A stretch of DNA of 64,000 nt from a virus. Positions 33,422-63,522 of this stretch are shown here, piece by piece. A program made the position numbers and the translations under genes. The first letter of the stretch is position 1, and the number at the start of each line of letters is the position of its first letter. The notes beneath the pieces were generated by a model that saw only the letters and a list, made by a program, of their open reading frames with translations, ran no database searches and was not told the DNA's origin. The stretch covers positions 1-64,000 of the IMG/VR virus record IMGVR_UViG_3300023179_000016; one strand, 5' to 3'.

Positions 33422-33802
33422 TTATTTAACCAACGATACTGCGAGATCTACTAGATAATCTGGCAAAATATTAAGATCTATACCCTTGGGAAGAGGTTGG
33501 GACGCTGAACGGGGTACGTGTTTAGATGTTAAAGCTTTTTTTCTCATGCCGCCATTTAGCGAACTTGCTCTTTTTAGATGATTCATCACCATACTCTTCA
33601 CATAGATGCGAACATTGCGTTTTATAGTAGTAGGTTTACTGTAAGTAACATGTCCAGCACATATGCTGTCTGTAATCGAATCGCATATCCTATCGATGTC
33701 AAAAGTAGACAACAGTGACAATGCCACGTCTTTTCCAAAGACAAAACTGTTGCCCAAAGTTTTGGCAACTTCATCTACGACCGCTTGCTTTTGACTCTTC
33801 AT
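33422..33802 (-). CDS. Divergent member of the QKEAV/NWLRKDxRLNGG paralogue family
   Basis: SQKQAV...YVKSMVMNHLKRASSLNGG...IDLNILPDYL. Confidence 0.6.
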   Translation of the reverse strand: MKSQKQAVVDEVAKTLGNSFVFGKDVALSLLSTFDIDRICDSITDSICAGHVTYSKPTTIKRNVRIYVKSMVMNHLKRASSLNGGMRKKALTSKHVPRSASQPLPKGIDLNILPDYLVDLAVSLVK

Positions 33803-34105
33803 TTATTCACCAAAGGAAAATTGTTTTTGATTTTTATCTGTAACGATCAATAGTGTCAGTATTTCAACTGGCAAAATGTTCCATTTATATTCCAATAATT
33901 GGATTTTACCAATTGTATTTAATTTTTTGAGCAATGATTGTATTTCTTTAGGTCTATCAGAAGAATTCTTAATGGTCTTAATGGCGACCACATCTATCAG
34001 TCCCTCTTCTTTCAAGAAGAAGAGAACGTCTTCAAGTTGACCAGTCAAGTCATTTAATCGTTTAAGAGCTTCTATTTCAGATCTAATACTCACGGTGAGT
34101 TCCAC
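33803..34105 (-). CDS. Hypothetical protein
   Basis: Operon ORF. Confidence 0.5.
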   Translation of the reverse strand: MELTVSIRSEIEALKRLNDLTGQLEDVLFFLKEEGLIDVVAIKTIKNSSDRPKEIQSLLKKLNTIGKIQLLEYKWNILPVEILTLLIVTDKNQKQFSFGE

Positions 34106-34108
34106 ATA

Positions 34109-35041
34109 TTATGTCGACATGTCGATAGGATCTCTGAAACCTTGAAAAGAGGGTATTCTAGGTAAATCTTTTACCCCAACCTCTTGGTATCTGTATCGAA
34201 CTATCTTTCCCAAATACTCTTCTTTATTGTCCCAAATCCTTTTTCTGAGAGAATCATCTAGGCCTTTACCCGTGCCTATTCCGAACTCTCTACCGTCGTG
34301 AACATCTTTCACGAACATGGTGCCTAATGTATTGACACCCACCATACCCGCTTTCGCAGTGGATCGCTTGGTATGACCCAATTCATCCAGCGATGCTTCA
34401 TTGGTGTTATGCAGTCTTTCTTCTAGTTTAACTATGATTGCTTCTGAATCTACGAATCTTTTTATCTTGACTAGATATTGTTCTTTGAACGATGACCGAC
34501 CGCATTTATAGGGTCCAGTTAATTTTCTGGTCATTATGCCCTCATGACCTTGTCTTATCGCCTGTTCCTCGTATTCCAATAATTCTGCCTCGTTGTTGAC
34601 GATTGTGGGTAACACCAGGACGCAGAACTCCGGTTTATCATTTGCCCAGGCAACCAAGTCTTTGACTCTATCTATGTAAGGCTTATCTATGGAGTCTTTT
34701 ACGAAATCAAAGATTTGATATATAAAGTTAGGTTCGCCATCTTCTGACATCACCTCGCTTTGGATGTCAGAAAACTCCTTCAAAGAACCGTCTCGATTTA
34801 TAGTCATCAATTCGCCGTCGAGACCGTCCGGCAATACAGACATTTTGGCTTGAATATACCTATTAGGTATGTCCTTGAATGATCTAGACAGCGACTTAGA
34901 ATTAAGTCTTAAACACCTGATGCCATCTAGTTTAATAGATGCCGCTAATGGGTATTTTAAATCAACAAATGACATCTGCTGACCACGACTATTTTCCATA
35001 GAGGCGGCCAACATGGGTTTCTTAATCATAATTCTCTCCAT
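34109..35041 (-). CDS. ATP-dependent DNA ligase
   Basis: KLDGIR, LDGEL, IFD, EGIMTR, LVKIKRF, PRIPSF motifs. Confidence 0.9.
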   Translation of the reverse strand: MERIMIKKPMLAASMENSRGQQMSFVDLKYPLAASIKLDGIRCLRLNSKSLSRSFKDIPNRYIQAKMSVLPDGLDGELMTINRDGSLKEFSDIQSEVMSEDGEPNFIYQIFDFVKDSIDKPYIDRVKDLVAWANDKPEFCVLVLPTIVNNEAELLEYEEQAIRQGHEGIMTRKLTGPYKCGRSSFKEQYLVKIKRFVDSEAIIVKLEERLHNTNEASLDELGHTKRSTAKAGMVGVNTLGTMFVKDVHDGREFGIGTGKGLDDSLRKRIWDNKEEYLGKIVRYRYQEVGVKDLPRIPSFQGFRDPIDMST

Positions 35042-35063
35042 CCGAAAATGGATAAATTCGGAT

Positions 35064-35984
35064 TTAGTACTTTTTCAAGAAATCTTGCATATCTTCTTGA
35101 GATACGAGCATTGACCAGCCAAATGAATCGCCGGCAAATAGAACACCGATTACTTGACCCCATCCATTTACCACAGCAGACCCGCTACTTCCAGGTTGCG
35201 CGAGAATTGTTGTAAAATATGCGTTTTTAGTAACATTCATGCACACCTTAACTACATATTCTAGACCTAAAAAATCCCTTTTTTGAACTAGGACTTTGTT
35301 TTTAGGCTTATCGCATTCGCTCTCAAGCATTCCACCCAGTTCTTGGGGAATTAATTCTTCTGGCGCGCTACCCATCTTAATGGAGATGTATCCTTCTGGA
35401 ATCTCTATGTCTTTAGACATGATGAGAGTACCTTTTGTCATCGTCGTCAAATATCCGGCAGGATGCCCAACCGCTGCCAGCGAGTCTCCCTTGTCTGGAG
35501 GCGAAGTACTGACCGTTAGACCTTCTACTCCTGGCATGCCCTCTAGTAGGCAAAGATCAGTTTTTTCAGATCTATGTAATATGGATCTAGGTATAAACTC
35601 GCCATTGTCATCCATCACAGATAAGTGGGCTCCGTCTGTTGACGCATCGCATACATGATCGTTTGTTAGCAAATATGATTTGCCACTCGGCGCCTTCACC
35701 ATGAATCCTGTGCCGCTACCGATTCCAGGTTCAAACATTATATAACTCTTTGATCCTACTTTATTTCTTAGCCAAGCGTCCCTAAGTTCCGGGGCTTTTA
35801 CAGCAATAGCTGCAATGGCTGCCGCAATAGCTGCAGCTAAAGTTGTTGCAGCAATAGCGTCTTTATGCTTCAGTACTGCCTTTTTAGCATTGGCAATTGC
35901 AGGTTTTAATTTTTTGTTGAGTTTAGTTTTAACTTTAGATTTTTTCATTTTGACTCCAATATTTGGATATTCTACCTCACTCAA
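35064..35984 (-). CDS. Membrane-anchored trypsin-like (S1) serine protease
   Basis: GTGF, LTNDHV, DLCLL, PGSSGS triad. Confidence 0.85.
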   Translation of the reverse strand: MSEVEYPNIGVKMKKSKVKTKLNKKLKPAIANAKKAVLKHKDAIAATTLAAAIAAAIAAIAVKAPELRDAWLRNKVGSKSYIMFEPGIGSGTGFMVKAPSGKSYLLTNDHVCDASTDGAHLSVMDDNGEFIPRSILHRSEKTDLCLLEGMPGVEGLTVSTSPPDKGDSLAAVGHPAGYLTTMTKGTLIMSKDIEIPEGYISIKMGSAPEELIPQELGGMLESECDKPKNKVLVQKRDFLGLEYVVKVCMNVTKNAYFTTILAQPGSSGSAVVNGWGQVIGVLFAGDSFGWSMLVSQEDMQDFLKKY

Positions 35985-36781
35985 CGAGAGTCTAACATAG
36001 ACTTCACGAGTTTTCCTGTTTTTACAGCAGTGGCCTGCGATGTACCAGTGCTCGACTCAGAAATCTTCTCTATGCCGTAAGAAATTCTAGATACGCCGTG
36101 TTCCCAACTATTGACATAATTACCATAGTTAGAGCTATAATAGCGATTATTGTTAACATCTAGGTTACCTACTACAATTAGGCGCTCATCGTACATCGCT
36201 GGGTAAAAACTGCAACCTGTAATAGTTGTTTTGTTATTGACTTTTTTATGTGTCGCGGATCCAAGTTCGCAACCATAGTTGCCAGCAGCAACTACAACTT
36301 TTATGCCCGTATCAAGAGCGCGCTTGATATACTTTTTTTCTTCATCGTTTGAGGATCCACCGCCAGCAGATATGTTTATGATGTCCACTTTGATGTTGAT
36401 CGCCCACCTGAGCGCATTCACCATGCTTCTGACAGTAGAACTAGATGTTGCTGTGCGGGGATCATAGAATTTGAGTATGACCTGACAATAATTGATCTTT
36501 TTATCTTTGAGGGACAAGAGCTCATCGTCGCTGCGGGCGACAGAATTTTTTGCATACTGATCTATGAGGCCACTAATGTGAGAACCATGACCAGAAGTAT
36601 CTATCAGAGATGTTTTTGTGAAATCTCGATGACCATGCTTACACATGGAAATAGAATTCTTAGCTAGATTGCCAATGCCGCTATCTATTACTGCCACTAT
36701 GATAGGCTTATCGGCATTAGCAGAAGAGGCAGAGATGAAACCGCAGACGATAAAAAAAGATATTTTATTTAGAATCTTCAT
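35981..36781 (-). CDS. Secreted subtilisin-like (S8) protease
   Basis: Signal peptide, VAVIDSG, HGSH, AAGN, GTSQA. Confidence 0.85.
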   Translation of the reverse strand: MKILNKISFFIVCGFISASSANADKPIIVAVIDSGIGNLAKNSISMCKHGHRDFTKTSLIDTSGHGSHISGLIDQYAKNSVARSDDELLSLKDKKINYCQVILKFYDPRTATSSSTVRSMVNALRWAINIKVDIINISAGGGSSNDEEKKYIKRALDTGIKVVVAAGNYGCELGSATHKKVNNKTTITGCSFYPAMYDERLIVVGNLDVNNNRYYSSNYGNYVNSWEHGVSRISYGIEKISESSTGTSQATAVKTGKLVKSMLDSR

Positions 36782-37046
36782 TGTTGACAGATACCATTAA
36801 ACGTTCTAAACACTTGTAGATATCGGATCGGTATTTGTCGTCAGTAAAATGAGAGCAATCTTTAATATGTTTCTTTATGTCCTGTTGGGATAAGCCCATG
36901 TCGATTAGCTTTTGATATACGGATAGCGCTTCTATCAGAAGACTAAAATTAAATGGTTTATTTTCTGATTTGTCGACAGAAGATTTATTCTGCCGTTCAA
37001 ACCGTTTATTTTTTGCTCTTATTCTGTCGTCTTCGTAGAATCCCAT
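36765..37046 (-). CDS. Hypothetical protein
   Basis: Coupled ORF. Confidence 0.5.
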   Translation of the reverse strand: MGFYEDDRIRAKNKRFERQNKSSVDKSENKPFNFSLLIEALSVYQKLIDMGLSQQDIKKHIKDCSHFTDDKYRSDIYKCLERLMVSVNNEDSK

Positions 37047-37423
37047 ATCTTTTCACCAAATAGTTCTTGTGTCTCTTCAAGAGAGTATACCGGATAATCT
37101 ATATCTAAGTTTTTAGACTTAGGCTGTTTTGCAGGCCTATTGCTTTCCAACAACAGCAATGCGCATTCTTCCGGGGTGAAACTGGCGTAACTGGCTTCTT
37201 TGGAGGAGAAGATTTTTGAGCTCACCTTGAATTCGATCTCTGGATCGAACTTTTCCGGTACACTCTTTTGTAATTCCATCTGCTCTCTTTGTCGATCGCT
37301 GATCGACTGTGACTGAATCACGGACAGCATCACGCGCTCTACCTCTTTATATGTGCAACCTAAAATTTGGTTGCAGATAGATTGCTTTGCATCTTTACTA
37401 TGAAGTATCTCGTTGGCTCTCAT
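37019..37423 (-). CDS. Hypothetical protein
   Basis: Coupled ORF. Confidence 0.5.
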   Translation of the reverse strand: MRANEILHSKDAKQSICNQILGCTYKEVERVMLSVIQSQSISDRQREQMELQKSVPEKFDPEIEFKVSSKIFSSKEASYASFTPEECALLLLESNRPAKQPKSKNLDIDYPVYSLEETQELFGEKIWDSTKTTE

Positions 37424-37567
37424 AAGTCTATCTTCTTTATTTAATAGACTTAATCCACTAATGTCTTTGATCTTCTGTTTGAGTCGCTTTGACAGAAATT
37501 AACTCCTACACCTAGATTATATCACTCGACTATATAAAGTCGAACGACATCTACGTTAGATTATAAG

Positions 37568-37885
37568 TTATTGTTCTGTCAGAGATTTTTCTAGATCTTG
37601 ATCAAATGTCATGCTGTAGGCAACAGCGGCGCACTCCTCGACTATCTTAACAAAGTACTCGTCTTTAAAGGCCGGATGGTCTGAAGTGGAAATGGCTTTG
37701 CACACTTCATATTTAACCCGCTCTTGGTTTGGAAAAGATGGCTCATCGGTGAACGATTCAACTGCCTTAAGCAGTTCTTCCGGGACAGGTATATTAAAGT
37801 GGCGCCAGAAATCTAGCGCGCTCTGACAATCTCTTGCCGAGATGACCACTTTACCTTCATTTGCAGCAGTAGTTTCTTTGCTCAT
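37568..37885 (-). CDS. Hypothetical protein
   Basis: ATGA-coupled to the ClpP gene. Confidence 0.6.
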   Translation of the reverse strand: MSKETTAANEGKVVISARDCQSALDFWRHFNIPVPEELLKAVESFTDEPSFPNQERVKYEVCKAISTSDHPAFKDEYFVKIVEECAAVAYSMTFDQDLEKSLTEQ

Positions 37886-38553
37886 TTTTCCACCCGTTGT
37901 TTTTTAATATCGGATTTTTGTTTCTTAGTCTTCTTTATTTTAGGACTTAGAGTGGTTTTATTGTGCTTATCTATCATTGGTTTTTCGGGTGTCTGAACTA
38001 TTTCATACATAAGATTGGATACTATCTTAGGCGTCCCTATTGCGTCTATGATACCAAATTTTAAAGCTGAGGGGGCATCCATATATCTATCCCTGCCATC
38101 TTGCTTTTTTATAAGCTCTCTAATCTCTTCATAATCTTTGAATCCGCAGTTCTTAGCTAGGAGGCCTAAAAAGTGCTCGTTTAATCTTTTGGTCTCAGTG
38201 ATGTCTGCATGCATATCGTGGACATCGCCTGCGGTCCCAGAGCTTGTCTCGTGCACCATAACCCTACTGTGCTTACCGCAGAACCTAATGTCTCCGTGGC
38301 TCAATAAGATGGCTCCGCAAGACATAGCCTTACCCATGCAGGTTGTAACTACCGTATTTGGTATTTCATCTATCGTCTCTATCATTTTAGCCAGGGCATC
38401 AACGGAGCCGCCATAGGAATCGATGTATACCATTATTGGTCTTCTTGGGTCCATTCTAGATTGATTTAAGATGGCATCTCTAAACTTTTGAGCAGATTCC
38501 TCGTCAAACTTAGTCACCCAAATCTCATGAGATCTCACGAAGTCATCTTCCAT
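37882..38553 (-). CDS. clpP: Second ClpP-family protease
   Basis: YIDSYGGSV, GKAMSCG, VMVHE, DRYMDA..ALKFGIID. Confidence 0.85.
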   Translation of the reverse strand: MEDDFVRSHEIWVTKFDEESAQKFRDAILNQSRMDPRRPIMVYIDSYGGSVDALAKMIETIDEIPNTVVTTCMGKAMSCGAILLSHGDIRFCGKHSRVMVHETSSGTAGDVHDMHADITETKRLNEHFLGLLAKNCGFKDYEEIRELIKKQDGRDRYMDAPSALKFGIIDAIGTPKIVSNLMYEIVQTPEKPMIDKHNKTTLSPKIKKTKKQKSDIKKQRVEK

Positions 38554-38648
38554 TTTGCACCACCTTTTATATATTGTACTAATTTCGTTTTTTAAATGGT
38601 AAATATGGTAAAATTAACTTATAATAACTAATCAACTGAAGCACTTAT

Positions 38649-39287
38649 ATGGGTCAACTAATTAAAAACGTGAACGAATCTTATGGCTCCGCAGCAAACA
38701 ACGGTGCGTCTGCGCAACCGATGGCTATGTCTGAAGATCATGTTTGTACCTCAAAGTGCGAAAAGACTGTAGTTAAGTCAAATGGTCAGTGGCAATTAGA
38801 GAAAAGATGCTGGGAAGGATATAAGCCAGTTCCTGGCAAGAAAGCGTATAGCAAGGGATCTTGCGAACCGATTAAAAAAGAAGAAGTTGCGCCTAAAAAT
38901 TCCAACAATAGAGAGACATACTTAGAGGCTTTTGGAAAATCAGATATAGAGATGTCTATGTATGACAACGAAGACATAGATATGTTATTTGGGTCTGATG
39001 TATCTAAAGAAACAGAAGATGCTCTAATAAAGGCCATATTAGCCAAAGGTTGGACACCTAAAAAAGAACATAAGTCAGAAAAAGGCGGCTTAACAGAAGC
39101 TGGTAGAAAGTCATACAATAAGGCGACTGGCGGCAATCTAAAAGCGCCACAGCCAGAAGGTGGACCTCGTAAAAGAAGTTTTTGTGCGCGCAACAAGGGA
39201 CAAATAGAGATGCACAACATAGATTGCAAAAAAGACCCAGAAAAAAGGGCTTGTAAAGCAAGACGTAGATGGAAATGTAGCAACTAA
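38649..39287 (+). CDS. Probable virion-internal protein (DUF6321-like C-terminus, NGQW motif)
   Basis: CWEGYK...GSC and GGLT.AGRK.YN..TG.NLKAPQ...RKRSFCAR...RWKC; TGGTAAAAT promoter. Confidence 0.6.
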   Translation: MGQLIKNVNESYGSAANNGASAQPMAMSEDHVCTSKCEKTVVKSNGQWQLEKRCWEGYKPVPGKKAYSKGSCEPIKKEEVAPKNSNNRETYLEAFGKSDIEMSMYDNEDIDMLFGSDVSKETEDALIKAILAKGWTPKKEHKSEKGGLTEAGRKSYNKATGGNLKAPQPEGGPRKRSFCARNKGQIEMHNIDCKKDPEKRACKARRRWKCSN

Positions 39288-39302
39288 AAAGGGTATGAAA
39301 AT

Positions 39303-40145
39303 ATGTCTAACCGTCTAGATTGGTCTGAATGGATTTTACAAAAGAATAATGAATATAAAAAAGAACTAAACAAGATGGAGCCCAGCGTTGTTCCAGCGAT
39401 GCCTCCTGGCGATGGTTCGCAGAGAAGACCTAAGAAACCACCTATTGTTCAACCAGATCATAAAGAGCCCGTCAAGCCGAATAAGAAGGATGAAGTTGGC
39501 AAGCCAATCTTACCTAAACCAAAGAAGAATGTCACTAGCGTGGTAAAAAGTTTACCAGATTGGTCTGAATGGGTCTTAAATAAGAACCAGCAAGCTACAG
39601 AAGAATTAAATAAAGGGGTTGCCGTTGCAGTCCCACCCTCTTCAGATGATGATTCTAAATCTAAACCTAAAAAAGGTGAGTCTGTGTTTAACATAGGCCA
39701 CGTTAATGAAGTTGCCGCAATGAAAGATCACAGTGAAACTAAAAAACTAGCGCATTCACTGGTAGATAATTCTAATGCAAAACCAGAAAATAAAAAGAAA
39801 ATAAAGCTAATGATCGACAAATCTAAATCTTCTGCTCATTTAGCTCAAGGTATGGCTAATCATATACTCGCTCATCCAGGCGAGGGATTGAGGGTAATCA
39901 AGAATGAAGATGAAGATTCACAAGAATTGTCTTTAAATAAGGCCAAAGATATGGCCGGCGACGATGTAGATTCTAGCATGTTAATGTCCGAACTTGAATC
40001 AATGGATCATCACATAGAGGAAATAAGAGATCACTTAAAAGAATCTGAAGTTGCGCCTGACTGGGTTAAAGCTAAAGTTTCTAGAGCTGCATCTTCTATT
40101 TCTGATATAGCACATTATGTGATGGGTATCAAACAGCATAAATAA
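39303..40145 (+). CDS. Probable virion-internal protein (two DWSEW motifs)
   Basis: DWSEW(I/V)L.KN...ELNK twice; PDWVKAKV...I..Y C-terminal module. Confidence 0.55.
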   Translation: MSNRLDWSEWILQKNNEYKKELNKMEPSVVPAMPPGDGSQRRPKKPPIVQPDHKEPVKPNKKDEVGKPILPKPKKNVTSVVKSLPDWSEWVLNKNQQATEELNKGVAVAVPPSSDDDSKSKPKKGESVFNIGHVNEVAAMKDHSETKKLAHSLVDNSNAKPENKKKIKLMIDKSKSSAHLAQGMANHILAHPGEGLRVIKNEDEDSQELSLNKAKDMAGDDVDSSMLMSELESMDHHIEEIRDHLKESEVAPDWVKAKVSRAASSISDIAHYVMGIKQHK

Positions 40146-40826
40146 TCACCACTCTACGGCTCTTGCTATTAGTGGTAATTCTGCCTTGAATATCTCTTTA
40201 CATTTTTCTGCTATGTCCATATGCTCTTTCTGAGTACCGTTGGCAGATCTTAATTCTATATAATGGATCCAGCTTCTAATAGAACCGCTCATATATAGTG
40301 TCGTTGCGGTTCCTAACGGAAGAATAAACCTGGCGCACTCCTTTGCAATACCGTTATTGAGTGCCCAAGTGTAATGCTCAAAAGAATTTTTCCAATTTTG
40401 TAATTGTCTATTTTCCCACTCGTTTTTTATGTGCTGAGGCACGTCATCGATTGAGTTTTGTCTATTCTTGTTGTCTTGTCTTCTGGCCGCTGTAAGTACT
40501 AAACCAGATTCATCTACAGAGGAATATCTCTGGCTAAATTCTTGAAATGTAAAAGATCTATGGCGCAATATTTGAGGCGCAATTGCCCTAGAAGTTTTTA
40601 TCTGTAGAGTCATACTGGCCATCTCAAATGGACTCCAGTGCTTATGCTTTATCAGATAATTGATTAGTTTTTCTGAATTACTAAAATTTAATTGATTATT
40701 CGGATTGCTTACCCTAGCGCAATACGAAATTATTTCCTCTGCGTTGGGAGTGCACGACACCAACTCCACGTCTTTATCGCTGTAAAAAATATTTTCTAAG
40801 TTATTTTTATTTTGCTCTATGCTCAT
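40146..40826 (-). CDS. thyX: FAD-dependent thymidylate synthase
   Basis: HWSPFE, QILRHRSFTFQEFSQRY, KECAR..LP, TQKEH. Confidence 0.93.
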   Translation of the reverse strand: MSIEQNKNNLENIFYSDKDVELVSCTPNAEEIISYCARVSNPNNQLNFSNSEKLINYLIKHKHWSPFEMASMTLQIKTSRAIAPQILRHRSFTFQEFSQRYSSVDESGLVLTAARRQDNKNRQNSIDDVPQHIKNEWENRQLQNWKNSFEHYTWALNNGIAKECARFILPLGTATTLYMSGSIRSWIHYIELRSANGTQKEHMDIAEKCKEIFKAELPLIARAVEW

Positions 40827-40973
40827 ATTTGACCCTCATGTTCTGGTAATATATTTCTACCACGTATGATTTACATTTTCGATCGCGTAAATTTTAAACT
40901 CTCATACATATACACATCAACAGCTTCATTGCTGCAAGAACAACAACAAAAATAAATTAAAAGGGAGTCGACC

Positions 40974-48940: not shown

Positions 48941-49432
48941 TTAGCTAGCGATGAATTTAGCAGCGAGTTCTGGCGGGAGAACAGAGTAATCGATTGTAGT
49001 GTTCATCTTATTTGTCTGAGAAATCTCAGCAGTCCTGTTGTCGATGTGGCCCTGAACCTCAGCGATCTCGCTGGGATCGGTGAGAGTGGAAAGAAGGGCA
49101 CGAAGCGCTTTTAGCTGAGGGTCAGAAGAACCCTTACGAGAACCAGGATTCTTTGCTGCATAAGATACGCCGCCGTTCAAGCGAGTATCTTTGCGGAGCC
49201 AATTTGACTGAAGACCGGAGACATACGCCCGCAGCTCAGAAGCGTTAAAACTCTTATCAAGAGCGATGTTTCCAGCAGAAAAACCTTCTACCAGAATTTG
49301 GTTAACCTGCAACCGCAGTTCACGAGTCATCATCGAGCTGATATTGTCGCCCTCAGATACCGTGATATTGTTCTCAGCCAGAACGTTCATAACTGCTGAA
49401 TAGACTGCTTCTTTTTGAGTTTGCTTAGACAT
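48941..49432 (-). CDS. QKEAV/NWLRKDxRLNGG paralogue family protein
   Basis: QKEAVY...YVSGLQSNWLRKDTRLNGG...DPQLKALRALL...IDYSVLPPELAAKF; SD AGGAG. Confidence 0.85.
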   Translation of the reverse strand: MSKQTQKEAVYSAVMNVLAENNITVSEGDNISSMMTRELRLQVNQILVEGFSAGNIALDKSFNASELRAYVSGLQSNWLRKDTRLNGGVSYAAKNPGSRKGSSDPQLKALRALLSTLTDPSEIAEVQGHIDNRTAEISQTNKMNTTIDYSVLPPELAAKFIAS

Positions 49433-49914
49433 ATTCTATCTCCTAAAATGTTAACCCGCATAAATCTTGCACGTGATAGCGGGCCAATATCACGTGCAAA
49501 TATGATTATTTTATACCCGATGATTCATTCAACGTTTTTGTTAGTTCCGCGAGAACATCATCAAGTTGTTCTTAAGAGTGAAGTCGTAAATATCTTTCAA
49601 AGTCTCTATAGATATCTTTCATGTCGTTGCCATAAACAAATTCAAACTTATTCAAGTCAGGTAGTTTGTCGAAAAGTTTTCTGGCCTCGTTTAATTTTGA
49701 ATTCATGGTAGCTGTTGTCAACAGCTTAAAAATATAGCCAACGTATATTTTTGGAACTACGGTCTGTTGCAAGCGCGTGTCCTAATGCATCGACATTGTT
49801 CTTCGTTATTGGTTTCGGAACATTTTTTAGGAGGAGCGCTAGTGCAAGCAGAAATTATCGTTAATAACGCATAGACCGCAAATAGTTTAGTTTTCATGCT
49901 GTTCTCGTTTTAAA

Positions 49915-55075: not shown

Positions 55076-55103
55076 GTAGCGGTGTCAGCCGCGCGGCTGA
55101 CAC
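55076..55103 (-). terminator. Example of hairpin + GACACYGCYAC element at the 3' end of a minus-strand unit
   Basis: GTAGCG GTGTCAGCCGCGCGGCTGACAC between convergent genes; nine same-orientation copies in the window. Confidence 0.5.
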
Positions 55104-55114
55104 ACTCGAGCAAG

Positions 55115-55333
55115 TTATTCCTCTTCAGTGTACGGGTTGGAGAAGTCCAGCGCGCCAATAAATCTGGTGGCTAGTACAACTTTAGGTCTTGGAATAACCT
55201 CAACCTCTTTCACGTTCACCCTAATTTTCTTGTGATTATACAGCTGCACCAGCAGATTTTCATCTCCAATAGAGTTTAGAACTTTTGCTTCGGACCCTGA
55301 CCAAATGCCGGACTTAATCTTGATCTTCACCAT
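55115..55333 (-). CDS. Small KOW/SH3-like hypothetical protein
   Basis: IKIKSGIWSGSEAKV pattern. Confidence 0.5.
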   Translation of the reverse strand: MVKIKIKSGIWSGSEAKVLNSIGDENLLVQLYNHKKIRVNVKEVEVIPRPKVVLATRFIGALDFSNPYTEEE

Positions 55334-55343
55334 TCGCTGACCC

Positions 55344-55592
55344 TCACTCGGTTGCTTCGCTGTTGTAATTGCGCTGCTGCAGCTCTTCCATGAATCTAGT
55401 ATATGACTTTACGTGTCTCTTGAAGAGAGGGATCGCTTCGTCCCACTTCTCGTCTCCGAGAGCGCACTCGGTCTCTATTACATCTGTCACGAAAGAGATT
55501 GCTTCCGCGTCTGACCCAACCTTCCAAGAAGAAGAAATACCCTTGTTGCTGAGAATGTCATTAACCTGTTCTGCTTTGTTGCTGTTGCTCAT
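55344..55592 (-). CDS. Hypothetical protein
   Basis: Promoter motif at 55614-55626; SD GGAGG. Confidence 0.6.
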   Translation of the reverse strand: MSNSNKAEQVNDILSNKGISSSWKVGSDAEAISFVTDVIETECALGDEKWDEAIPLFKRHVKSYTRFMEELQQRNYNSEATE

Positions 55593-55755
55593 TAGAGCCT
55601 CCCGTTACTTGGAATAATAGATTCGGTTTTTAGAACTATTTATCTTCGTCGTTGTCGTCTGGGATGTTGGGCGCTAGACAGATAGTGATGATCAGCATGA
55701 TAGCCATCAAGATTAGTGGCGCTGCCTCTGATGCCTTGTCTTCCATGTTGATCCT

Positions 55756-56106
55756 TTAGGGAAGATAAGAGAAATGTATCTGCTCTTCTCTCACTTCGCG
55801 GCTGCACTCGCCGCATTTAGTTTCTCTGAGCAATACGGGATCTCGCTTGATTCCGGTGCCGCCGCAACTCTTGCAGACATTAGATTTTAAGCTGCTGATC
55901 TCCGCTCTCAGCGCTTCATTCTCGAGCTCCAATAGTCTCACATGCCACTCGCGGCACGCACATGCGTTGTGGTGGGAAGTGCACTTCGGAATTTGTCTCA
56001 GTTCTTGCGGTAGAGAATTGAGATCGCACTCGCAATCCAGCACTAGATTGCAACCTGGACACGCCTCATTATACATATAATCACTGTTGGACTTGTATGA
56101 CATCAT
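55756..56106 (-). CDS. Cys-rich hypothetical protein
   Basis: Several CxxC motifs and LENEALRAE; SD AGGAG. Confidence 0.6.
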   Translation of the reverse strand: MMSYKSNSDYMYNEACPGCNLVLDCECDLNSLPQELRQIPKCTSHHNACACREWHVRLLELENEALRAEISSLKSNVCKSCGGTGIKRDPVLLRETKCGECSREVREEQIHFSYLP

Positions 56107-56136
56107 TTTCTCCTGTTTGGTTGTTATATTCAGTTT

Positions 56137-56391
56137 TTAATCGGCGAGCTCGAACTTCATCGAGTTGATCCTCTTCACTGGAACCATATACCAGCTGGCG
56201 GACAAACCGGACAGGAAGAATGTTTTGCTGACAATACTCCAGTAGATGTAGGATTTAAAGTTCGGATTATCGTTAAACATGCCCATAAGATCATCACCGG
56301 ACTTCTCTTCGAGACCGATCATGCGAGCTGCTTCTCTGGGATCGACGGTGGTACCATCTTTGAAGATAACTTTCGTGAGTCTTGACTTCAT
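56137..56391 (-). CDS. Hypothetical protein
   Basis: SD GAGGAG. Confidence 0.6.
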   Translation of the reverse strand: MKSRLTKVIFKDGTTVDPREAARMIGLEEKSGDDLMGMFNDNPNFKSYIYWSIVSKTFFLSGLSASWYMVPVKRINSMKFELAD

Positions 56392-56636
56392 TTTTCTCCT
56401 CGACTTAAGAGGTTCTCAATCACTATATTAACTCAAAATACACTACTATCCCACGTGTTTTTATCGTGTCGGTATAAATTACCCATGGAATGGTTGAAAT
56501 GGTTCTTAGTGATACTGGCAGCAGATGTGTGCGCGAGCCTCTTAAAGGAAAGCAATTGGAAGAGATTATTCAAGAAGAAGCGCAAGCGCAGCAGGTCTCG
56601 CAAGGTCGCTCAGATTATACCCCTCAAAAAGGTGGA

Positions 56637-56849
56637 TTAGATCTTCCTGTCCGCGCACTCGTCGCAGCCTTGAATCTCATTGGAGAACGAGTTGCACTCC
56701 TTGCACGACTCAGCCCAGTATAGGTCCACGATGTTCCCCAAGTCCTCGACCTGCACAGAGCACGCCACCGTCGCATTATTCATCTCGTTGTACGGGACGG
56801 CCTCATTCGACTCAAACTCCACGATGATTCTATACTTGGGCATGATCAC
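56637..56849 (-). CDS. Hypothetical protein
   Basis: MPKY start shared with 56846-57037; C-terminal CxxC pair. Confidence 0.55.
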   Translation of the reverse strand: MIMPKYRIIVEFESNEAVPYNEMNNATVACSVQVEDLGNIVDLYWAESCKECNSFSNEIQGCDECADRKI

Positions 56850-57037
56850 TTCACCTTCTTGATGTTGAGAACTTCCTCGTTGAACTCAATATTTTTGTAG
56901 TCGTACTCCACTTCAGACATGGACTTGCGCTTTGAGACCCCGCCGTAGATCTCTGCCGCTCCCCTCTTGGATTTGGCCTTTATGTACCTCACGGAATAGA
57001 TGGTCTGCTTCACTCGGACAGCATACTTCGGCATCAC
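56846..57037 (-). CDS. Hypothetical protein
   Basis: GC3-rich coupled ORF. Confidence 0.55.
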   Translation of the reverse strand: MMPKYAVRVKQTIYSVRYIKAKSKRGAAEIYGGVSKRKSMSEVEYDYKNIEFNEEVLNIKKVK

Positions 57038-57245
57038 TCGACTCTCGCCCCTTTATGAGTTGGTCTCTGCGCATGCCGCGATGTGCTGCGCTACGTCCTC
57101 ATCTACGCCCCTCTCTCGCTTCTCGGCCAAGGAGTCTGCGTCGCACCTGCCGCAGGTCTTGACATCGTAACCCTTGAGCCTCAGAAAGAGAGCTTCGCAC
57201 CTCTCGCACGTATGCTTCACGAACGTCATACCCAAGTACTCCATA

Positions 57246-57392
57246 TCACTCCTCCTCGCAAGAGAGCTCAAACGTCTTCTTGTGCTTGACCCGGTCCTTC
57301 TTCAGGGGGTGGACCTTGCTGGGCAATGGTTCCACCCTGGGTCTAATCCTTGGGCGCTTAATCTTCAGGGTGATCTTCTTCATAGAAGACAT
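57246..57392 (-). CDS. 48-aa basic protein, not in the ORF track
   Basis: MSSMKKITLKIKRPRIRPRVEPLPSKVHPLKKDRVKHKKTFELSCEEE*; SD GAGG. Confidence 0.5.
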   Translation of the reverse strand: MSSMKKITLKIKRPRIRPRVEPLPSKVHPLKKDRVKHKKTFELSCEEE

Positions 57393-57420
57393 AGTGCCAC
57401 CTCATCCTTTCGTTATAGGT

Positions 57421-57711
57421 TTACAGCTCGAACTCCCCAACCTTGGGATTCGAACTCGAATTATAGCGGATCCAGGAGCTGCAGGAGTTGCACCTGACAG
57501 TGACGGGGTCGTAGCGATGGACGTACACGTCGGGGGACCCGCAAGCGTAGCAGCTCCTAGAGCAGTAGATGATGTCGATCAGAGCCTCCATAGTGGTCTT
57601 CTCCTCGCTGTGCTTGCCGCAGGAGGTGCAGGTGAAGATGTACGGGTCGCCCACCGTGTACTCGTCGTCCATACCAATATAGACATTGCAGTGGCGGCAG
57701 TAGATCTTCAT
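57421..57711 (-). CDS. Double zinc-ribbon protein
   Basis: CRHC, CTSC, CYAC, CNSC; SD GAGGAGG; promoter motif at 57740-57752. Confidence 0.65.
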   Translation of the reverse strand: MKIYCRHCNVYIGMDDEYTVGDPYIFTCTSCGKHSEEKTTMEALIDIIYCSRSCYACGSPDVYVHRYDPVTVRCNSCSSWIRYNSSSNPKVGEFEL

Positions 57712-57850
57712 AGGTCTAAATCCTCCTCGATTCCAGCGGATATAATCTCGGGGAAAAGTCGACCGCGCAGAAAAGAGAAGTCCACGCACGTCCCTCATAG
57801 ACACACGTGGACCTCTCTATATCAGCCGGGCTCGCGACCCAACAACCAAC

Positions 57851-58333
57851 TCACTCGCCAGACGTTGCCGTCGGAGCAAACTTGGCAGCGAGCTCCGGGG
57901 GCAGAGCACTGAGGTCGATCGTCGGCTGCTTGGACCGAGCGATCTCGGCGACCCGGGCATCGATGTGGGCCTGGACCTCAGCCCGGTCAGTGACGTCGGT
58001 GAGCGTTCCGAGCAGGGCTCGAAGAGCCTTGAGCTGCGGATCACCAGAACCAGAGCGAGAGCCAGGGTTCTTAGCCACATATGCGACCCCACCGTTCAGC
58101 CGCTTGTCCTTTCGGAGCCAGTTGCTCTGCAGGCCAGAGACATAGGCCTTCAGCTGCTGGTCGGTGAACTCCGTATCGAGCTCGATAGCTCCACCGCGGA
58201 ACCCCTCGAACAGGATCTGGTTCACCATGGCCCGCTCCTCACGGGACATCTCGACTGCACTCGAGAACTCGGTAGTTCCCTTGACGTTGACGACTGCACC
58301 ATAGACTGCTTCTTTCTGACTCATCTTGCTCAT
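57851..58333 (-). CDS. QKEAV/NWLRKDxRLNGG paralogue family protein
   Basis: QKEAVY...NWLRKDKRLNGG...IDLSALPPELAAKF. Confidence 0.85.
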   Translation of the reverse strand: MSKMSQKEAVYGAVVNVKGTTEFSSAVEMSREERAMVNQILFEGFRGGAIELDTEFTDQQLKAYVSGLQSNWLRKDKRLNGGVAYVAKNPGSRSGSGDPQLKALRALLGTLTDVTDRAEVQAHIDARVAEIARSKQPTIDLSALPPELAAKFAPTATSGE

Positions 58334-59322
58334 AACTAACGTTCCTCCGTTGTTGTTCTATAAGATCGGGATATCGGTCACCACGACCGGTATCTTCACC
58401 TATGGGGTGTTCGGTACTCACTCAAAACTGGCTACTTCCGCGTCTGCTGTGGCTACCTACTGCTTGCCGCCTGCCTCCACTGGGGAGAGCTCCACTCGCG
58501 CTACTCCCTGCTCTCTACATCATTACCACCTAGATATATGTTCGGGATAATGGGATGTCGTGTAAGTCGCTGATACTATTGGTGGGGAAGGTTGGTGTGG
58601 AAGGGGTGTAACGGTGCCCACCTGAGTCACACTGAGTCTGACCCGACCTGCACGTCGCACTCACCGAGACTCCCCGATACCCGTCCAGACAGCCGATCGG
58701 GCTCGTGAGGTCATAGGCTCGGCTGCACCCGACAGCCGGCGTAGCAGTGTCGGCGCGCGCTGAAAAGCAGTGGGTAGGGCAAGCAGCCGCTATTATATAG
58801 CCCGGCCAGGGCCATGTGCTGCCAGATCCCTACCCACGGACGCTTGTTGATCCCTTACTGCCTGAGTCTAGCCGTCGTCAGACAGGTCACCAACCTGTTA
58901 CGACCTCTAGATCGTTTCGGCCTTGGAAAGACTCACGTATCCGGGTACGGTTTTGAGAGCCACCCATCATACATATTCAGCAGGAGACAGAACCGTACAA
59001 GATTCTCCTACCGGTTAGACAATACATCCCGGTACTTCCGTCTAACAAGAGTACCGGATTTACCCCTCACTTTACCCGGACTAGGGACCGGTCACCGATA
59101 AGTGTCCTGGCTAGGACCACCGGTGAGTGGAAAACTGACTTACTTTCTGAGGCAGATGATCGGGAGCAGCGCGCGTGTTTCTGCGCCGAGAAGAAAAGCT
59201 ACGAGCGCATGACAGAAAAGCGTCTAATCCTACCAAGGCGGGCGCCGGGAATTGACCCGCCCACCCAGCGACCGCCCGATAAACCGCTGTTTTTTGAGCC
59301 TAGCTAACCTCCGGGGCGTGGC

Positions 59323-59592
59323 TCATTTCCCCTCCAGCGCGGCGCGGGCAATACTTGGCAATGCACAATCACAGGACTTCCCAAATTGAATGTCGCACCG
59401 TTCATGGTGAATGGTCAGATATTGCTTCAGCGCCTCCCGAAGCCTGGCGTTTTCAGCGCTGACTTCCTCGATTGCGACACGATACCCAGCCAAAAACACT
59501 TCTATGTCAATGTGCATTACAGATGCGTCTTTCTGATAGGCTGGGAATCGCTGCTTTAGATATTCTTCTGCCAGTTTTTCGGCTCTAGTCAT
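59323..59592 (-). CDS. Array unit 5 (ENARLREAL...ARAALEGK)
   Basis: Start codon supplied by the preceding repeat (GGAGGGGAAATGA). Confidence 0.7.
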   Translation of the reverse strand: MTRAEKLAEEYLKQRFPAYQKDASVMHIDIEVFLAGYRVAIEEVSAENARLREALKQYLTIHHERCDIQFGKSCDCALPSIARAALEGK

Positions 59593-59792
59593 TTCCCCTC
59601 CAGCGCGGCGCGGGCGATCGATGCGCCACAAAGACAACCAGCGGTATAGTCACAACCTTCATCATGGGCGGCAAATCTTTCCAGCGCCTCCCGAAGCCGG
59701 GCGTTCTCGGCTTCCATTTCGGCTCGTCCGGATTCGTAACCCTGTTGCCATCCTGAGCACGTTCCCTTGCATGGGTGATTCAGCTTGTTCAT
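59589..59792 (-). CDS. Array unit 4
   Basis: ENARLREAL...ARAALEGK. Confidence 0.7.
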   Translation of the reverse strand: MNKLNHPCKGTCSGWQQGYESGRAEMEAENARLREALERFAAHDEGCDYTAGCLCGASIARAALEGK

Positions 59793-60019
59793 TACTTCCC
59801 CTCCAGCGCGGCGCGGGCTTCAATTACTTCCTGTCTAAGTTCATCCCAAGCCTGACCTAGCTCTTCGTCCAGCAGAAGAGCCTCATCCACTTTATTGGTG
59901 ATCTTGCGAAGCGCCTCCCGAAGCCGGGTGTTTTCGGCTAAGAATCGATTCCTGGCCTCTTCAAATCCCCGCAACCACACCAATTCATCCGGACTTCCCG
60001 CCTCAGGTCTTGTGCTCAT
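59792..60019 (-). CDS. Array unit 3
   Basis: ENTRLREAL...ARAALEGK. Confidence 0.7.
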   Translation of the reverse strand: MSTRPEAGSPDELVWLRGFEEARNRFLAENTRLREALRKITNKVDEALLLDEELGQAWDELRQEVIEARAALEGK

Positions 60020-60233
60020 TTAGTTTCTCCATAACATTGGCAGGGAGCATCTTTTCGTCTTCTAAAAAGACGTAATCGTACCCATCCGCGTGTTTCATCA
60101 GGTCTTCTTTTAACGAGCGAATGTCGGAGCTTATCCACTGTCCTAGAACCTGACCGTCTTCAGTGACACACACACCAACCACGTCCCAACCCGGGCTGGA
60201 CCCAAAGATCGGAAATCCATAAGCCTTCTTCAT
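60003..60233 (-). CDS. Non-repeat gene embedded in the array
   Basis: MKKAYGFP start supplied by repeat A; lacks both motifs. Confidence 0.6.
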   Translation of the reverse strand: MKKAYGFPIFGSSPGWDVVGVCVTEDGQVLGQWISSDIRSLKEDLMKHADGYDYVFLEDEKMLPANVMEKLNEHKT

Positions 60234-60565
60234 GCTTCCCTCCCCTCCAGCGCGGCACGGGCTGCACACTGCAGGCACCCCTGGTCGGAATAGCTGCACC
60301 GCTCATCGTGCCCACGGACCATTTCTTTCAGCGCCTCTCGCAGTCGTGCATTCTCAGACCGAAGCATAATTACCTCGTTAAGCCACTGCGGTGGCTCAAT
60401 AATGAGGTAAGACATACCCGCCCTTGTCCCCGGTGGATCGGACAAATGAATTTGTAAAGGCTCTGATGAGGCCAGTACGCAAGCATGGTCCTGAAGCGTG
60501 TTCAGTGAAACTTCTGCACCGCAGCGGGAGCATTTCCCAATTTTGTCGTTTGTAAAAAGGCTCAT
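60230..60565 (-). CDS. Array unit 2
   Basis: MSLFTN...ENARLREAL...ARAALEGREA. Confidence 0.7.
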   Translation of the reverse strand: MSLFTNDKIGKCSRCGAEVSLNTLQDHACVLASSEPLQIHLSDPPGTRAGMSYLIIEPPQWLNEVIMLRSENARLREALKEMVRGHDERCSYSDQGCLQCAARAALEGREA

Positions 60566-60804
60566 TTCCCCTCCAGCGCGGCGCGGGCGATATTTCCGAG
60601 CGTGCAATCGCAGAATCGAGCAGCGTCCAGCGGTGGGTTATCCCGCGAGGCGCAATCGTGGAAATGCGTGTAAGCGTACTCCTCCAGCGCCTCCCGAAGC
60701 CGGGCATTTTCAGCTTCAAGCTCTTTCATTTTTGTAGTGACTTCTTGGTTATACCGATCGGCAGAATCCAGCATGTCCTTTGTGAGATCCAATTCATCCT
60801 TCAC
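60562..60804 (-). CDS. Array unit 1
   Basis: SD AAGGAG then GTG; ENARLREAL...ARAALEGK. Confidence 0.7.
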   Translation of the reverse strand: MKDELDLTKDMLDSADRYNQEVTTKMKELEAENARLREALEEYAYTHFHDCASRDNPPLDAARFCDCTLGNIARAALEGK

Positions 60805-60993
60805 ACAAACGCTCCTTTCCGAAACTGGGGACTGGCCGCCTTATCCTTTTCCGGAGAGAGTTATGTGTGACACTACTACTCTTCGATGAAGTTTCACGAT
60901 CTTACGCGGCACCGCAGGCACTTCAAGCCTTCTGGGCCATTATATCACACTGTGCGAGATCTGTGGAGCTCTACGTAGGTGAGACTCATGGTA

Positions 60994-61206
60994 TCAACCC
61001 TTGTCTTTGCCGAGGCTGATGGGCAGCAGAGCCATCATCTCGGCGATGACCTGCTCGTCGGTCATCGGAGTGAGCTCGGGATTGGGCGTGAGCTCGGCTG
61101 GCACGTTCGGCCAGGGATACGAGGTCATCTTGAAGGGCTTGCCGGCCGCGACGCCGTACACGGTCTGTGTCTCTGTCTCAGAGTTGTAGCACGAGAGGTA
61201 TCTCAT
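60994..61206 (-). CDS. Hypothetical early-region protein
   Basis: SD AGGAG; GC3-rich codons. Confidence 0.6.
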   Translation of the reverse strand: MRYLSCYNSETETQTVYGVAAGKPFKMTSYPWPNVPAELTPNPELTPMTDEQVIAEMMALLPISLGKDKG

Positions 61207-61242
61207 ATCTTTCTCCTGTTGAGATTTAGGATCGGGATGGGT

Positions 61243-61404
61243 TCAGAGGTCCTCGACCAGATACTCGCCCTCGATCTCCAGCTCGACTGCGTAGCCCTGC
61301 TCGAGGTACTTATCTCCCACCTCGAGTGCCTGGTCGTAGGAGTCAAACCTGATGCTGGCGAACCTGGAGCACTGACCGATCTCGCGGACGTGGATGGTGT
61401 ACAT
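61243..61404 (-). CDS. 53-aa protein, not in the ORF track
   Basis: MYTIHVREIGQCSRFASIRFDSYDQALEVGDKYLEQGYAVELEIEGEYLVEDL*; SD GGAGG; promoter motif at 61425-61438. Confidence 0.65.
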   Translation of the reverse strand: MYTIHVREIGQCSRFASIRFDSYDQALEVGDKYLEQGYAVELEIEGEYLVEDL

Positions 61405-61528
61405 TCATATCCTCCATACATGGAATTATATGATCGGGATCGGGTGGGATTCGGTTATATAGTCGGCGTGGCGGTGTCGGTCGGCGAGCAGCCGGGCGGA
61501 GCTTCCTTGCTCCGCCTGCTCACTCAGG

Positions 61529-61879
61529 TTACTTGGAGTAGGCGACCACACCGTACAGTAGTCCGTTACCGGAACCATCGACTGGTTCGTCGACCATCTT
61601 GTATCCGAAAAGCTCCATGTTGTAGTTGAGTGCGTCGAGCATGTGGTCGATCCACTCGTTGAGTTCATGAGCATCGTCGGGTTTCAAGCCGTCGTCTGCG
61701 TAGTCATAGTGGACGACTATATCGCCCAACTTTATTGAAGGAAGAACTCCGTAGTTAGAGATGTTGGTCGGATCGATCGCTTCGACATACATGCTGCCAG
61801 GCATGTCACACTTGGCCTGGTGCGGAGCAGTTGACTCGAGATTGCTCACCAGTTTCACTACGGTGTTCATGTTAGCCAT
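61529..61879 (-). CDS. Acidic hypothetical cassette gene
   Basis: Leader duplicated with that of 62668-62925. Confidence 0.7.
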   Translation of the reverse strand: MANMNTVVKLVSNLESTAPHQAKCDMPGSMYVEAIDPTNISNYGVLPSIKLGDIVVHYDYADDGLKPDDAHELNEWIDHMLDALNYNMELFGYKMVDEPVDGSGNGLLYGVVAYSK

Positions 61880-61945
61880 CAGGCAGACCTCTGGGTTATG
61901 AGTTAATTATTTAACCCATCGACAATTATATATAATGTCGGTAAT
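61876..61945 (-). promoter_or_regulatory. Promoter + hairpin leader + SD, duplicated at 62922-62995
   Basis: ATTACCGACATTATATATAA...GATG(A/G)GTTAAATAATTAACTCATAACC..GAGGTCTGCCTGATG in both copies. Confidence 0.8.
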
Positions 61946-62020
61946 GAGTTTACGGGTGGCGTAGCAGTGTCAGCGAGCAGCTGGGCGGAGCTTCCTTGCT
62001 CCGCCCAACCGCAGGTCAGC

Positions 62021-62488
62021 TCAGGCCTTGAACTTCGCGGCCAGCTCTGCAGGCAGCTGGCTGAAGTCGATGGCGGGCTTCGCGGGCTTGGCGATCTCGG
62101 CACTCCTGAGGTCGATGAAGTGCTGGATCTCAGCCCTGTCGGCCGGGTCAGTCACCGTGCTGAGCAGGGCCTTGAGAGCCTTGATCTGCGGGTCGCCAGA
62201 GCCAGAGCGAGCACCAGGGTTCTTGGTGACCCAGGTAGTCCCGCCGTTGAGTCGCTGGTCCTTGCGGAGCCAGTTGTTCACGAGGCCGACCACGTACTTC
62301 TTGAGCTCCGGCTCAGAGAAGTTGGCCTTGAGGGTGATCTTACCCTCCTTGAACATGGTGACCAGCTCCGAGTGGATCTGGGCCAGCTCAGACTTGCTGG
62401 GCGTGTGAGCTCCGTTAGGAGCGAACTGAGTGCAGAAGCAGCTGACGACATTGAAGACCGCTTCCTTCTGGTTCATTGCTGCGATCAT
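62021..62488 (-). CDS. QKEAV/NWLRKDxRLNGG paralogue family protein
   Basis: SD GGAGG before ATG 62488; NWLRKDQRLNGG...IDFSQLPAELAAKF. Confidence 0.85.
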   Translation of the reverse strand: MIAAMNQKEAVFNVVSCFCTQFAPNGAHTPSKSELAQIHSELVTMFKEGKITLKANFSEPELKKYVVGLVNNWLRKDQRLNGGTTWVTKNPGARSGSGDPQIKALKALLSTVTDPADRAEIQHFIDLRSAEIAKPAKPAIDFSQLPAELAAKFKA

Positions 62489-62667
62489 GCGGGTTTCCTC
62501 CGTTGGTTGGTTGTAGGTTCGGGCGCGAGCTGTAAACTCGAGCATCATGCGCTCGACATTTACAATTAGATATAAGATCGGGGGAAGTCGGTATGCGGCC
62601 GGCGTAGCAGTGTCACGGCGCGCGGACCAAAGGGTGGGGTCGTCCATGACCCCACCGTATCAGCGAC

Positions 62668-62925
62668 TCAACCGGTCAGCAGGTCGTTCCAGTCGACTGG
62701 TACGTAGCACTCGCCGGTCTCGCGGGCGAACTCGGATGGAGTGGGTTCGCGGCCGACTCGCACGTGCTGGTCGAGCTCCTCGATGTAGACGACCGACGGT
62801 TCGGAGTCAGTGACCTCATAGAAGTACTGATCAGCGTCCGCATCCAGCATCTCCCGCTGGATTCCCTCGTGGGTGACGAGGACGGTATAGTCGGTGCACG
62901 GCACAATAGAGATGAGTTTCACCAT
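62668..62925 (-). CDS. Acidic hypothetical cassette gene
   Basis: SD GGAGG; shared leader. Confidence 0.7.
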   Translation of the reverse strand: MVKLISIVPCTDYTVLVTHEGIQREMLDADADQYFYEVTDSEPSVVYIEELDQHVRVGREPTPSEFARETGECYVPVDWNDLLTG

Positions 62926-63084
62926 CAGGCAGACCTCCAGGTTATGAGTTAATTATTTAACTCATCATTCACTTTTATATATAATGTCGGTAATAGGACA
63001 CCAGGCGTAGCAGTGTCGGTGGCTCGAGCTACCGAGCCCGCTGCGGGGCGGAGCTTCCGTGCTCCGCCCCGACCCGCTCTTCGC

Positions 63085-63522
63085 TCAGCGCTTGCCGAAC
63101 TTGGCTGCGATCTCTGCAGGCAGCTTGCTGAAGTCGACCTTGGGTCGGTTCAGCTCGGCGATCCGAGAGTCGATGTGTCGCTGGATCTCAGCTCGATCCG
63201 TCGGGTCGGTGATGGTGCTGAGCAGAGCCCTGAGCGCAGTCAGCTGGGGATCATCGACTCGGGAGGACTTGGGTTGGTGATCGACCCCACCGTTCAGCCG
63301 CTTGTCCTTTCGGAGCCAGTTGTTGAGCAACCCTGAGACATAGTTGCTCAGCTCCTTGTCGGTGTACTCCTTCCTGAGCTCGATGCTCCCGTTCCTGAAC
63401 CCCTCGAACAAGACCTGACGGATGGTTCGGGTCTGCTCAGAAGTCGGCTCGCAGACGCCGACTCCATCGAACCCGGTGATCGCGACCACTGCCTGGTAGA
63501 CTGCTTCCTTCTGGTTCATCAT
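63085..63522 (-). CDS. QKEAV/NWLRKDxRLNGG paralogue family protein
   Basis: SD GAGGAG before ATG 63522; NWLRKDKRLNGG...VDFSKLPAEIAAKF. Confidence 0.85.
   Translation of the reverse strand: MMNQKEAVYQAVVAITGFDGVGVCEPTSEQTRTIRQVLFEGFRNGSIELRKEYTDKELSNYVSGLLNNWLRKDKRLNGGVDHQPKSSRVDDPQLTALRALLSTITDPTDRAEIQRHIDSRIAELNRPKVDFSKLPAEIAAKFGKR

Follow-up and report, generated by a model that had tools for sequence, protein, structure and literature searches.

A conserved multi-copy orphan protein family with a capsid-protein-like codon signature in a large uncultivated myovirus

The first 64,000 nucleotides (the window) of the 153,399-bp IMG/VR virus record IMGVR_UViG_3300023179_000016, whose CheckV completeness is 91%, encode five small paralogous proteins, here called A to E in order of position. 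We found that they belong to a real, conserved, multi-copy orphan family, the long copies of which (B to E) carry the codon signature of the phage's capsid protein. Judging from the sequences, we tentatively take the long form to be a protein that binds nucleic acid and is made in large amounts from several promoters, a reading in which our confidence falls short of even.

Results

An earlier note on this DNA, made from its letters, had described five open reading frames (ORFs) of one family, and all five are present, lie on the minus strand and translate as claimed (Table 1). A profile search of the whole genome recovered exactly these five members (E 1.8e-80 to 8.8e-32), while a sixth match, at 73758-73919 (E 1e-3), covered a hairpin-length segment only and was taken as chance. 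The four long copies, about 145-163 aa in length, share 50-65% pairwise identity and the motifs YV.GL..NWLRKD.RLNGG, DPQ(L/I).AL(R/K)ALL, AE.Q..ID.R.AE and ID.S.LP.E that had been attributed to them, and the alignment bears out that their N-terminal third is the most variable part. Short copy A, 27% identical to the long copies, indeed lacks the helical hairpin, within a missing stretch of ~45 residues that comprises the Gly-rich loop and the two-helix hairpin, and it retains the N-terminal domain (N-domain), the LNGG motif and an ID..ILP..L tail. The idea that LNGG is a protease or ubiquitin-like cleavage site was dropped, since the motif is part of a helix cap and turn whose packing is predicted with confidence. 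Based on the positions of the Shine-Dalgarno sequences, the start of D is most likely at 62488 rather than at 62647, and that of E at 63522.

Table 1. Family members and associated features in the window
Feature	Position	Strand	Remarks
Short paralogue A	33422..33802	-	126 aa; isoelectric point (pI) 9.8; N-domain and C-terminal tail, without Gly-rich loop or hairpin
100-aa gene	33803..34105	-	directly upstream of A; its stop abuts the ATG of A
Long paralogue B	48941..49432	-	163 aa; orthologues in four relatives
Perfect 12-bp hairpin in leader of B	49467..49499	-
Long paralogue C	57851..58333	-	160 aa; GC content at third codon positions (GC3) 0.71; sequence used for modelling
CCGATCTTATA promoter-like motif of C	58359..58369	-	begins 36 nt upstream of the ATG of C
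Long paralogue D	62021..62488	-	155 aa from ATG at 62488, preceded by GGAGGAA
CCGATCTTATA motif (62571-62581) and leader with 15-bp stem-loop of D	62489..62581	-	upstream of D
Long paralogue E	63085..63522	-	145 aa from ATG at 63522, preceded by GAGGAG
CCGATCTTATA motif (63661-63671) and strongly structured 140-nt leader of E	63523..63671	-	z -5.75

The phage carries tRNA-Leu(UAA), tRNA-Ile(UAU) and tRNA-Arg(UCU), which read exactly the codons UUA, AUA and AGA. None of the 122 Leu, Ile and Arg codons of the long copies is one of these three (0/56 Leu, 0/30 Ile and 0/36 Arg), compared with 36% of Leu (UUA), 55% of Ile (AUA) and 67% of Arg codons (AGA) in 13 large genes. The genome median for the combined share of the three codons is 0.46, and among 150 non-overlapping ORFs of at least 90 aa the long copies, taken on their longest open frames, rank second to fifth lowest; the major head protein (142278-143729; phrog_752 match, E 5.5e-54), with 3 such codons in 82, ranks beside them together with the two head genes upstream of it. 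The major head protein and these two genes (141012-141413 and 141444-142259), which make up a head cluster at 141012-143729, are the only other large avoiders of UUA, AUA and AGA, and their avoidance serves as an internal yardstick for high expression. Copy B avoids the three codons while its immediate neighbours use them, and the long copies of related phages likewise avoid them; the avoidance is thus a property of the gene and not merely of the GC-rich island in which C, D and E are found. Short copy A has the bulk codon usage. As the signature of the long copies matches that of the major head protein, it points to translational selection for very high output, an interpretation reinforced by the GGAGG-type Shine-Dalgarno sequences found ahead of most long copies in all relatives. 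Codon usage has been described as differing between the temporal and expression classes of phage genes (PMC5683454).

The GC-rich island spans 56.6-65 kb (to ~65100), with 51-56% GC and a GC3 of 0.66-0.85 in a genome of roughly 39% GC. It contains C, D and E and many single-gene cassettes, and its genes almost never use UUA, AUA or AGA. The island is perhaps an immediate-early block whose codon usage suits the tRNA pool of the host, and for the three copies within it the earlier designation as early proteins is plausible. A recent horizontal import of the GC-rich copies was rejected, as the GC-rich copies of other genomes are not the sequences closest to them and as copy B, which lies outside the island, avoids the same codons.

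The earlier note had further assigned to most copies their own promoter motif, a strong Shine-Dalgarno sequence and a structured leader, statements that hold for some copies and fail for others. The motif CCGA-N3-TATA precedes C, D and E; it is absent from A, which is located within an operon, and from B, upstream of which a sigma70-like match was found at chance level only. A strong Shine-Dalgarno sequence is present at four of the five copies. With regard to the leaders, that of E is structured as a whole, those of B and D have local stems only (whole-leader z ~ -1.3 each) and C has no such structure. Across the genome CCGA-N3-TATA is strictly strand-specific, all 19 occurrences being on the minus strand, and it likely represents a phage-specific promoter class that is not used by the plus-strand structural genes. 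The sites lie mostly 30-150 nt upstream of minus-strand start codons, the majority within 15528-63671; in relatives, the motif also precedes some family copies and is missing upstream of many others.

Every one of the 11 genomes compared, namely this phage and ten relatives from IMG/VR (genome sizes 126-177 kb), holds three to five copies. Together with the head-protein codon signature, the strong ribosome-binding sites and the promoters that most copies have to themselves, this upholds the earlier suggestion that the family is dosage-amplified. More widely, clustering of the family at 90% identity gives over 2,226 groups, and at 50% it gives 767. The family is phage-only, its ESM Atlas clusters are 92-100% viral, nearly all members measure 145-175 aa, and every one is unnamed or tagged "hypothetical." A search for fused or longer forms of the family returned none, and in the extra regions of the longer members a single KGG motif was the sole domain identified.

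A maximum-likelihood tree separates a short from a long subfamily (support 100/100), a split that is, by the evidence of these sequences, old. The short subfamily constitutes a separate orthologous group with one copy per genome and always adjoins the 100-aa gene, which is kept beside it in four relatives and gave no family match in library searches; three of the four relatives compared also have a DNA ligase match upstream. Copy B has its orthologues grouped with a support of 91/93, and D and E form a lineage-specific pair (93/91). From the middle of the gene to the end of the intergenic cassette that lies downstream, D and E are 70% identical in nucleotide sequence, and the promoter is also common to both. 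The segmental duplication relates 61876-62278 to 62922-63324 and 62557-62581 to 63647-63671; it takes in the 3' half of the gene and the entire downstream intergenic cassette (hairpin, box, promoter and leader), and the genes that follow the duplicated cassettes (116 aa and 85 aa) are unrelated. Among the copies the ratio of nonsynonymous to synonymous substitution rates is 0.17-0.49 and synonymous sites are near saturation, which indicates that the copies are old and under purifying selection. The small genes flanking the long copies mostly differ between genomes, so that the family appears as the stable element of a variable region, and the neighbouring genes examined gave no functional lead.

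The phage is a myovirus with a tail sheath gene at 71390-73630 and a large terminase gene at 133101-135032 (genome coordinates); portal, GroEL, ribonucleotide reductase, ThyX and DNA ligase genes are also present. Its closest cultured phage by terminase, Myxococcus phage Mx1, is just 27% identical, and we therefore regard the clade as uncultivated. Mx1 does not carry the family, and a tblastn search of the family against 50,697 phage records produced zero matches.

The earlier note had called the family unknown, and an AlphaFold model searched with Foldseek gave no confident match. The same outcome was obtained by several routes: (i) in profile searches, the five proteins of the window had no match above threshold in Pfam, PHROGs, NCBIfam or PADLOC, 148 diverse family members had no shared match in Pfam or PHROGs, and the best hit of a PDB sequence profile search (E 0.006, an interferon) was taken as chance; (ii) in structure searches, Foldseek against the PDB returned nothing at E <=0.001 for the whole model or the N-domain, BFVD returned only an uncharacterised protein of the same family and no T4-type internal protein, and VIA-align against 48,161 chains reached a best Z of 5.4 with the whole model as query and of 5.1 with the N-domain; (iii) ESM Atlas yielded unnamed viral clusters only, with no usable named match, and no description of the family was found in the published literature. 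Among the matches listed by Foldseek against the PDB and by VIA-align, no solved phage sponge, inhibitor or DNA mimic (such as Acb2, Tad1/2 or Ocr) had a meaningful score, the Ocr rows standing at E about 3. An acyl carrier protein fold was considered and rejected: the best Foldseek rows had probabilities <=0.54 with template modelling (TM) scores <=0.47, the position equivalent to the invariant Ser (DSL) at the beginning of helix 2 in that fold is Thr in 57% and Ser in 23% of members and so is not invariant, and the proteins are neutral to basic, unlike the acidic carrier proteins.

The AlphaFold2 model of copy C, built from 148 diverse sequences, has a mean predicted local distance difference test score (pLDDT) of 94.1 and a predicted TM score of 0.73; the N-domain modelled alone has a pLDDT of 90.7. 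Helices are predicted at residues 6-18, 31-46, 58-75, 99-110, 114-134 and 146-152, with a non-helical but well-defined loop at 76-98. The predicted layout of the long form is an N-terminal three-helix domain, in which helices 2 and 3 are connected by an 11-residue loop rather than a turn, followed after the basic helix 3 and its loop by a helical hairpin and a short C-terminal tail. The hairpin may, by analogy, mediate dimerisation, and in the model the tail (ID.S.LP.EL) most likely folds back on the N-domain.

Conservation is concentrated in helix 3 and the following loop, which form the near-invariant segment Y..GL.SNWLRKD.RLNGG.KY..KNPGSR.G.GD and contain almost all of the invariant positions (the invariant or near-invariant residues are Q6, Y64, N71, W72, K75, D76, N80, G81, G91, R93 and D98). 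Over this segment (62-98) the net charge averages +4.1 and is above zero in 98% of the 148 members, against an average of -2.7 for the remainder of the N-domain. The variable positions lie at 15-28, at 53-60 and in the hairpin turn, and none falls within the conserved segment. Residues 1-10 are part of the fold (pLDDT 96) and Gln6 is present in 100% of members, observations that speak against a removable N-terminal peptide.

Discussion

The reading that we tentatively prefer is that the long-form protein would be required in stoichiometric, capsid-like amounts and would bind nucleic acid through the invariant basic surface formed by helix 3 and the adjoining loop. Its target would most likely be DNA, bound independently of sequence in an architectural or shielding role, though a conserved RNA is also conceivable. 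That the polar residues hardly vary over 767 divergent clusters speaks against a target in the form of a phage-specific sequence motif, and thus against the earlier suggestion that the family binds the repeated DNA or RNA motifs. The several copies would chiefly provide dosage and different timing, with C, D and E placed behind putative CCGA-N3-TATA promoters in the GC-rich, probably early island, and with copy B and short copy A placed among nucleotide-metabolism and ligase genes. In a bolder version, which seems to us doubtful, the family would be a very abundant phage "chromatin" or shielding protein of a new class, with several isoforms, or else a ribosome or RNA coat; it would have a fold of its own, be essential to a widespread clade of uncultivated 125-180 kb myophages and be supplied in successive waves by paralogues under different regulation.

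A nucleoid or DNA-shielding role had been among the suggestions of the earlier note, and it fits the conserved basic helix-plus-loop surface; neither this surface nor the winged-helix-like resemblance proves it. The alternative suggestion that the copies have diversified in specificity finds little support, as it is the invariant part of the protein that forms the candidate binding surface, and the variation is located in the distal N-terminal third. The resemblance in question is to winged-helix and uL11-CTD nucleic-acid-binding domains (for example E2F-DP 1cf7, FoxP, the MCM C-terminal winged helix and L11 1aci), to which the N-domain aligns in VIA-align with Z 4.0-4.9 and a root mean square deviation (rmsd) of 3.1-3.7 A over 56-65 residues, none of the winged-helix domains reaching Z 8. 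These are likewise three-helix domains with short beta bridges, and the most conserved, basic part of the family (helix 3 and loop) would correspond to their recognition helix and wing. The family differs from them in its long helix 2-3 loop in place of a helix-turn-helix, in having no sequence similarity or Pfam match to them, and in the addition of the hairpin and the back-folding tail. Residues 95-138 also superpose on antiparallel two-helix hairpins, a generic motif, such as those of the histidine-kinase DHp domain, SSV1 A100 (4lid) and the SIP N-domain (2a26), with Z 4.4-5.1 and an rmsd of 2.3-5.8 A over 43-55 residues. As the scores in both cases lie within the stated noise range of the tool, we take these resemblances as leads only.

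Several considerations weigh against the preferred reading: (i) both the level and the timing of expression were deduced from codon usage, ribosome-binding sites and promoter motifs; (ii) no structural match rises above noise, the best Z being 5.4 where, as stated for the tool, helical models often score much higher by chance; (iii) the overall pI of 6.6-9.3 is neutral to mildly basic, whereas many DNA-coating proteins are strongly basic; (iv) the invariant Q, Y, N, W, K, D, N, R and D together with a Gly-rich loop would equally suit a small-ligand pocket or a protein interface; and (v) the argument for dimerisation consists of resemblance and nothing else.

The alternative that fares best would have the protein bind or inhibit, in stoichiometric amounts, some abundant and highly conserved part of the host (ribosome or rRNA, RNA polymerase or a nucleoid protein), or else soak up a small signalling molecule as a sponge; it would then be a host-takeover or anti-defence factor that has to be made in bulk from the start of infection. 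We consider this unlikely but deserving of serious attention. The very-high-expression signature and the location of the genes in a region of small, probably early genes are in its favour, as is the near-invariance of polar pocket residues across such divergent clusters, which suggests a universal target; the loop KNPGSR.G.GD is of a Gly-rich type that often contacts phosphates, and the weak uL11-CTD-like matches are also compatible with it. Anti-defence genes tend, however, to be scattered unevenly among genomes, and this family is by contrast the fixed anchor within a variable region and occurs in 11/11 genomes; moreover, the searches gave no match in PADLOC or among solved sponges and inhibitors, and the short paralogue shares an operon with DNA ligase.

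That the family is an abundant virion component, either an injected internal head protein or a capsid accessory with paralogues like T4 IPI-III, appears improbable. The long copies share their codon signature with the head gene cluster, and the T4 internal proteins resemble the family in being several small paralogues per genome, made abundantly and encoded outside the structural block; the family is likewise multi-copy, small and neutral to basic. Every copy, however, lies on the strand opposite to the structural genes, and three carry CCGA-N3-TATA, which is never found on the structural-gene strand. The T4 proteins are also hypervariable, whereas the family is strongly conserved across the clade, and they have no sequence or fold match to it, in keeping with the BFVD result; an N-terminus that lies within a confident fold and includes the invariant Gln6 does not look like a cleavable capsid-targeting peptide.

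Least probable, and in our view very unlikely, is the possibility raised in the earlier note of a sequence-specific transcription factor or phage sigma co-factor with one paralogue for each promoter class or repeated motif (CCGA-N3-TATA, the GACACYGCYACGCC box or the hairpin RNAs), for although the promoter-like motif is strictly confined to one strand and the N-domain bears a weak winged-helix-like resemblance, regulators are not normally made at the level of a capsid protein, the putative recognition helix and loop do not differ between paralogues or across the family and would thus confer no difference in specificity, and the motif is missing upstream of many copies in relatives.

To return to the preferred reading of an abundant nucleic-acid-binding protein, phages are known to make abundant early proteins that coat or remodel nucleic acid or ribosomes, among them SPO1 TF1, T4 Ndd and MotB, and PhiKZ gp014. 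These are likewise small and non-enzymatic-looking, and the family resembles them further in its presumed high early expression; it differs in that searches of the PDB and BFVD revealed neither homology nor a common fold with any of them, and we know of none that is kept at three to five dispersed copies per genome. As a family and a fold, the proteins described here have no known relative, while the phenomenon itself, small phage proteins that are amplified and expressed at a high level, is of a known kind.

If the expression level has been judged correctly, these would be among the most abundant proteins of widespread large environmental phages, and the family has no name, domain, fold relative or cultured carrier in the searches made; it is probably, on sequence grounds, a major but uncharacterised player in infection. 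With a conserved copy number of 3-5 and an invariant surface, a soluble protein of 17 kDa makes a tractable target. Knowing its binding partner would show how a clade with its own GroEL and several proteases handles its own or the host's nucleic acids, and a functional answer would annotate several thousand metagenomic proteins at once.

With regard to the host, one related phage genome (LNEN01000305.1, 146,658 bp) is filed as a contig of a "Cytophagales bacterium" metagenome-assembled genome, and other family matches sit in metagenome-assembled genomes of Saccharibacteria and Promethearchaeota. Phage contigs that were wrongly binned are the probable explanation, and these records give at best a faint hint of the host; the strong use of Shine-Dalgarno sequences argues against a host in the Bacteroidota.

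Two further regions of the window were noted. An unusual cluster of protease genes at 30881-38553 surrounds the DNA ligase gene and short paralogue A, with two ClpP homologues (30881-31708 on the plus strand and 37882-38553 on the minus strand), an AAA ATPase (32044-33033), a trypsin-like peptidase (35064-35984) and a subtilase (35981-36781). At 27000-30000 there is a second GC-rich patch of about 49% GC, which holds an HNH endonuclease gene (27020-28477) and two long ORFs that overlap on opposite strands, 28445-29677 on the plus strand and 28511-29656 on the minus strand.

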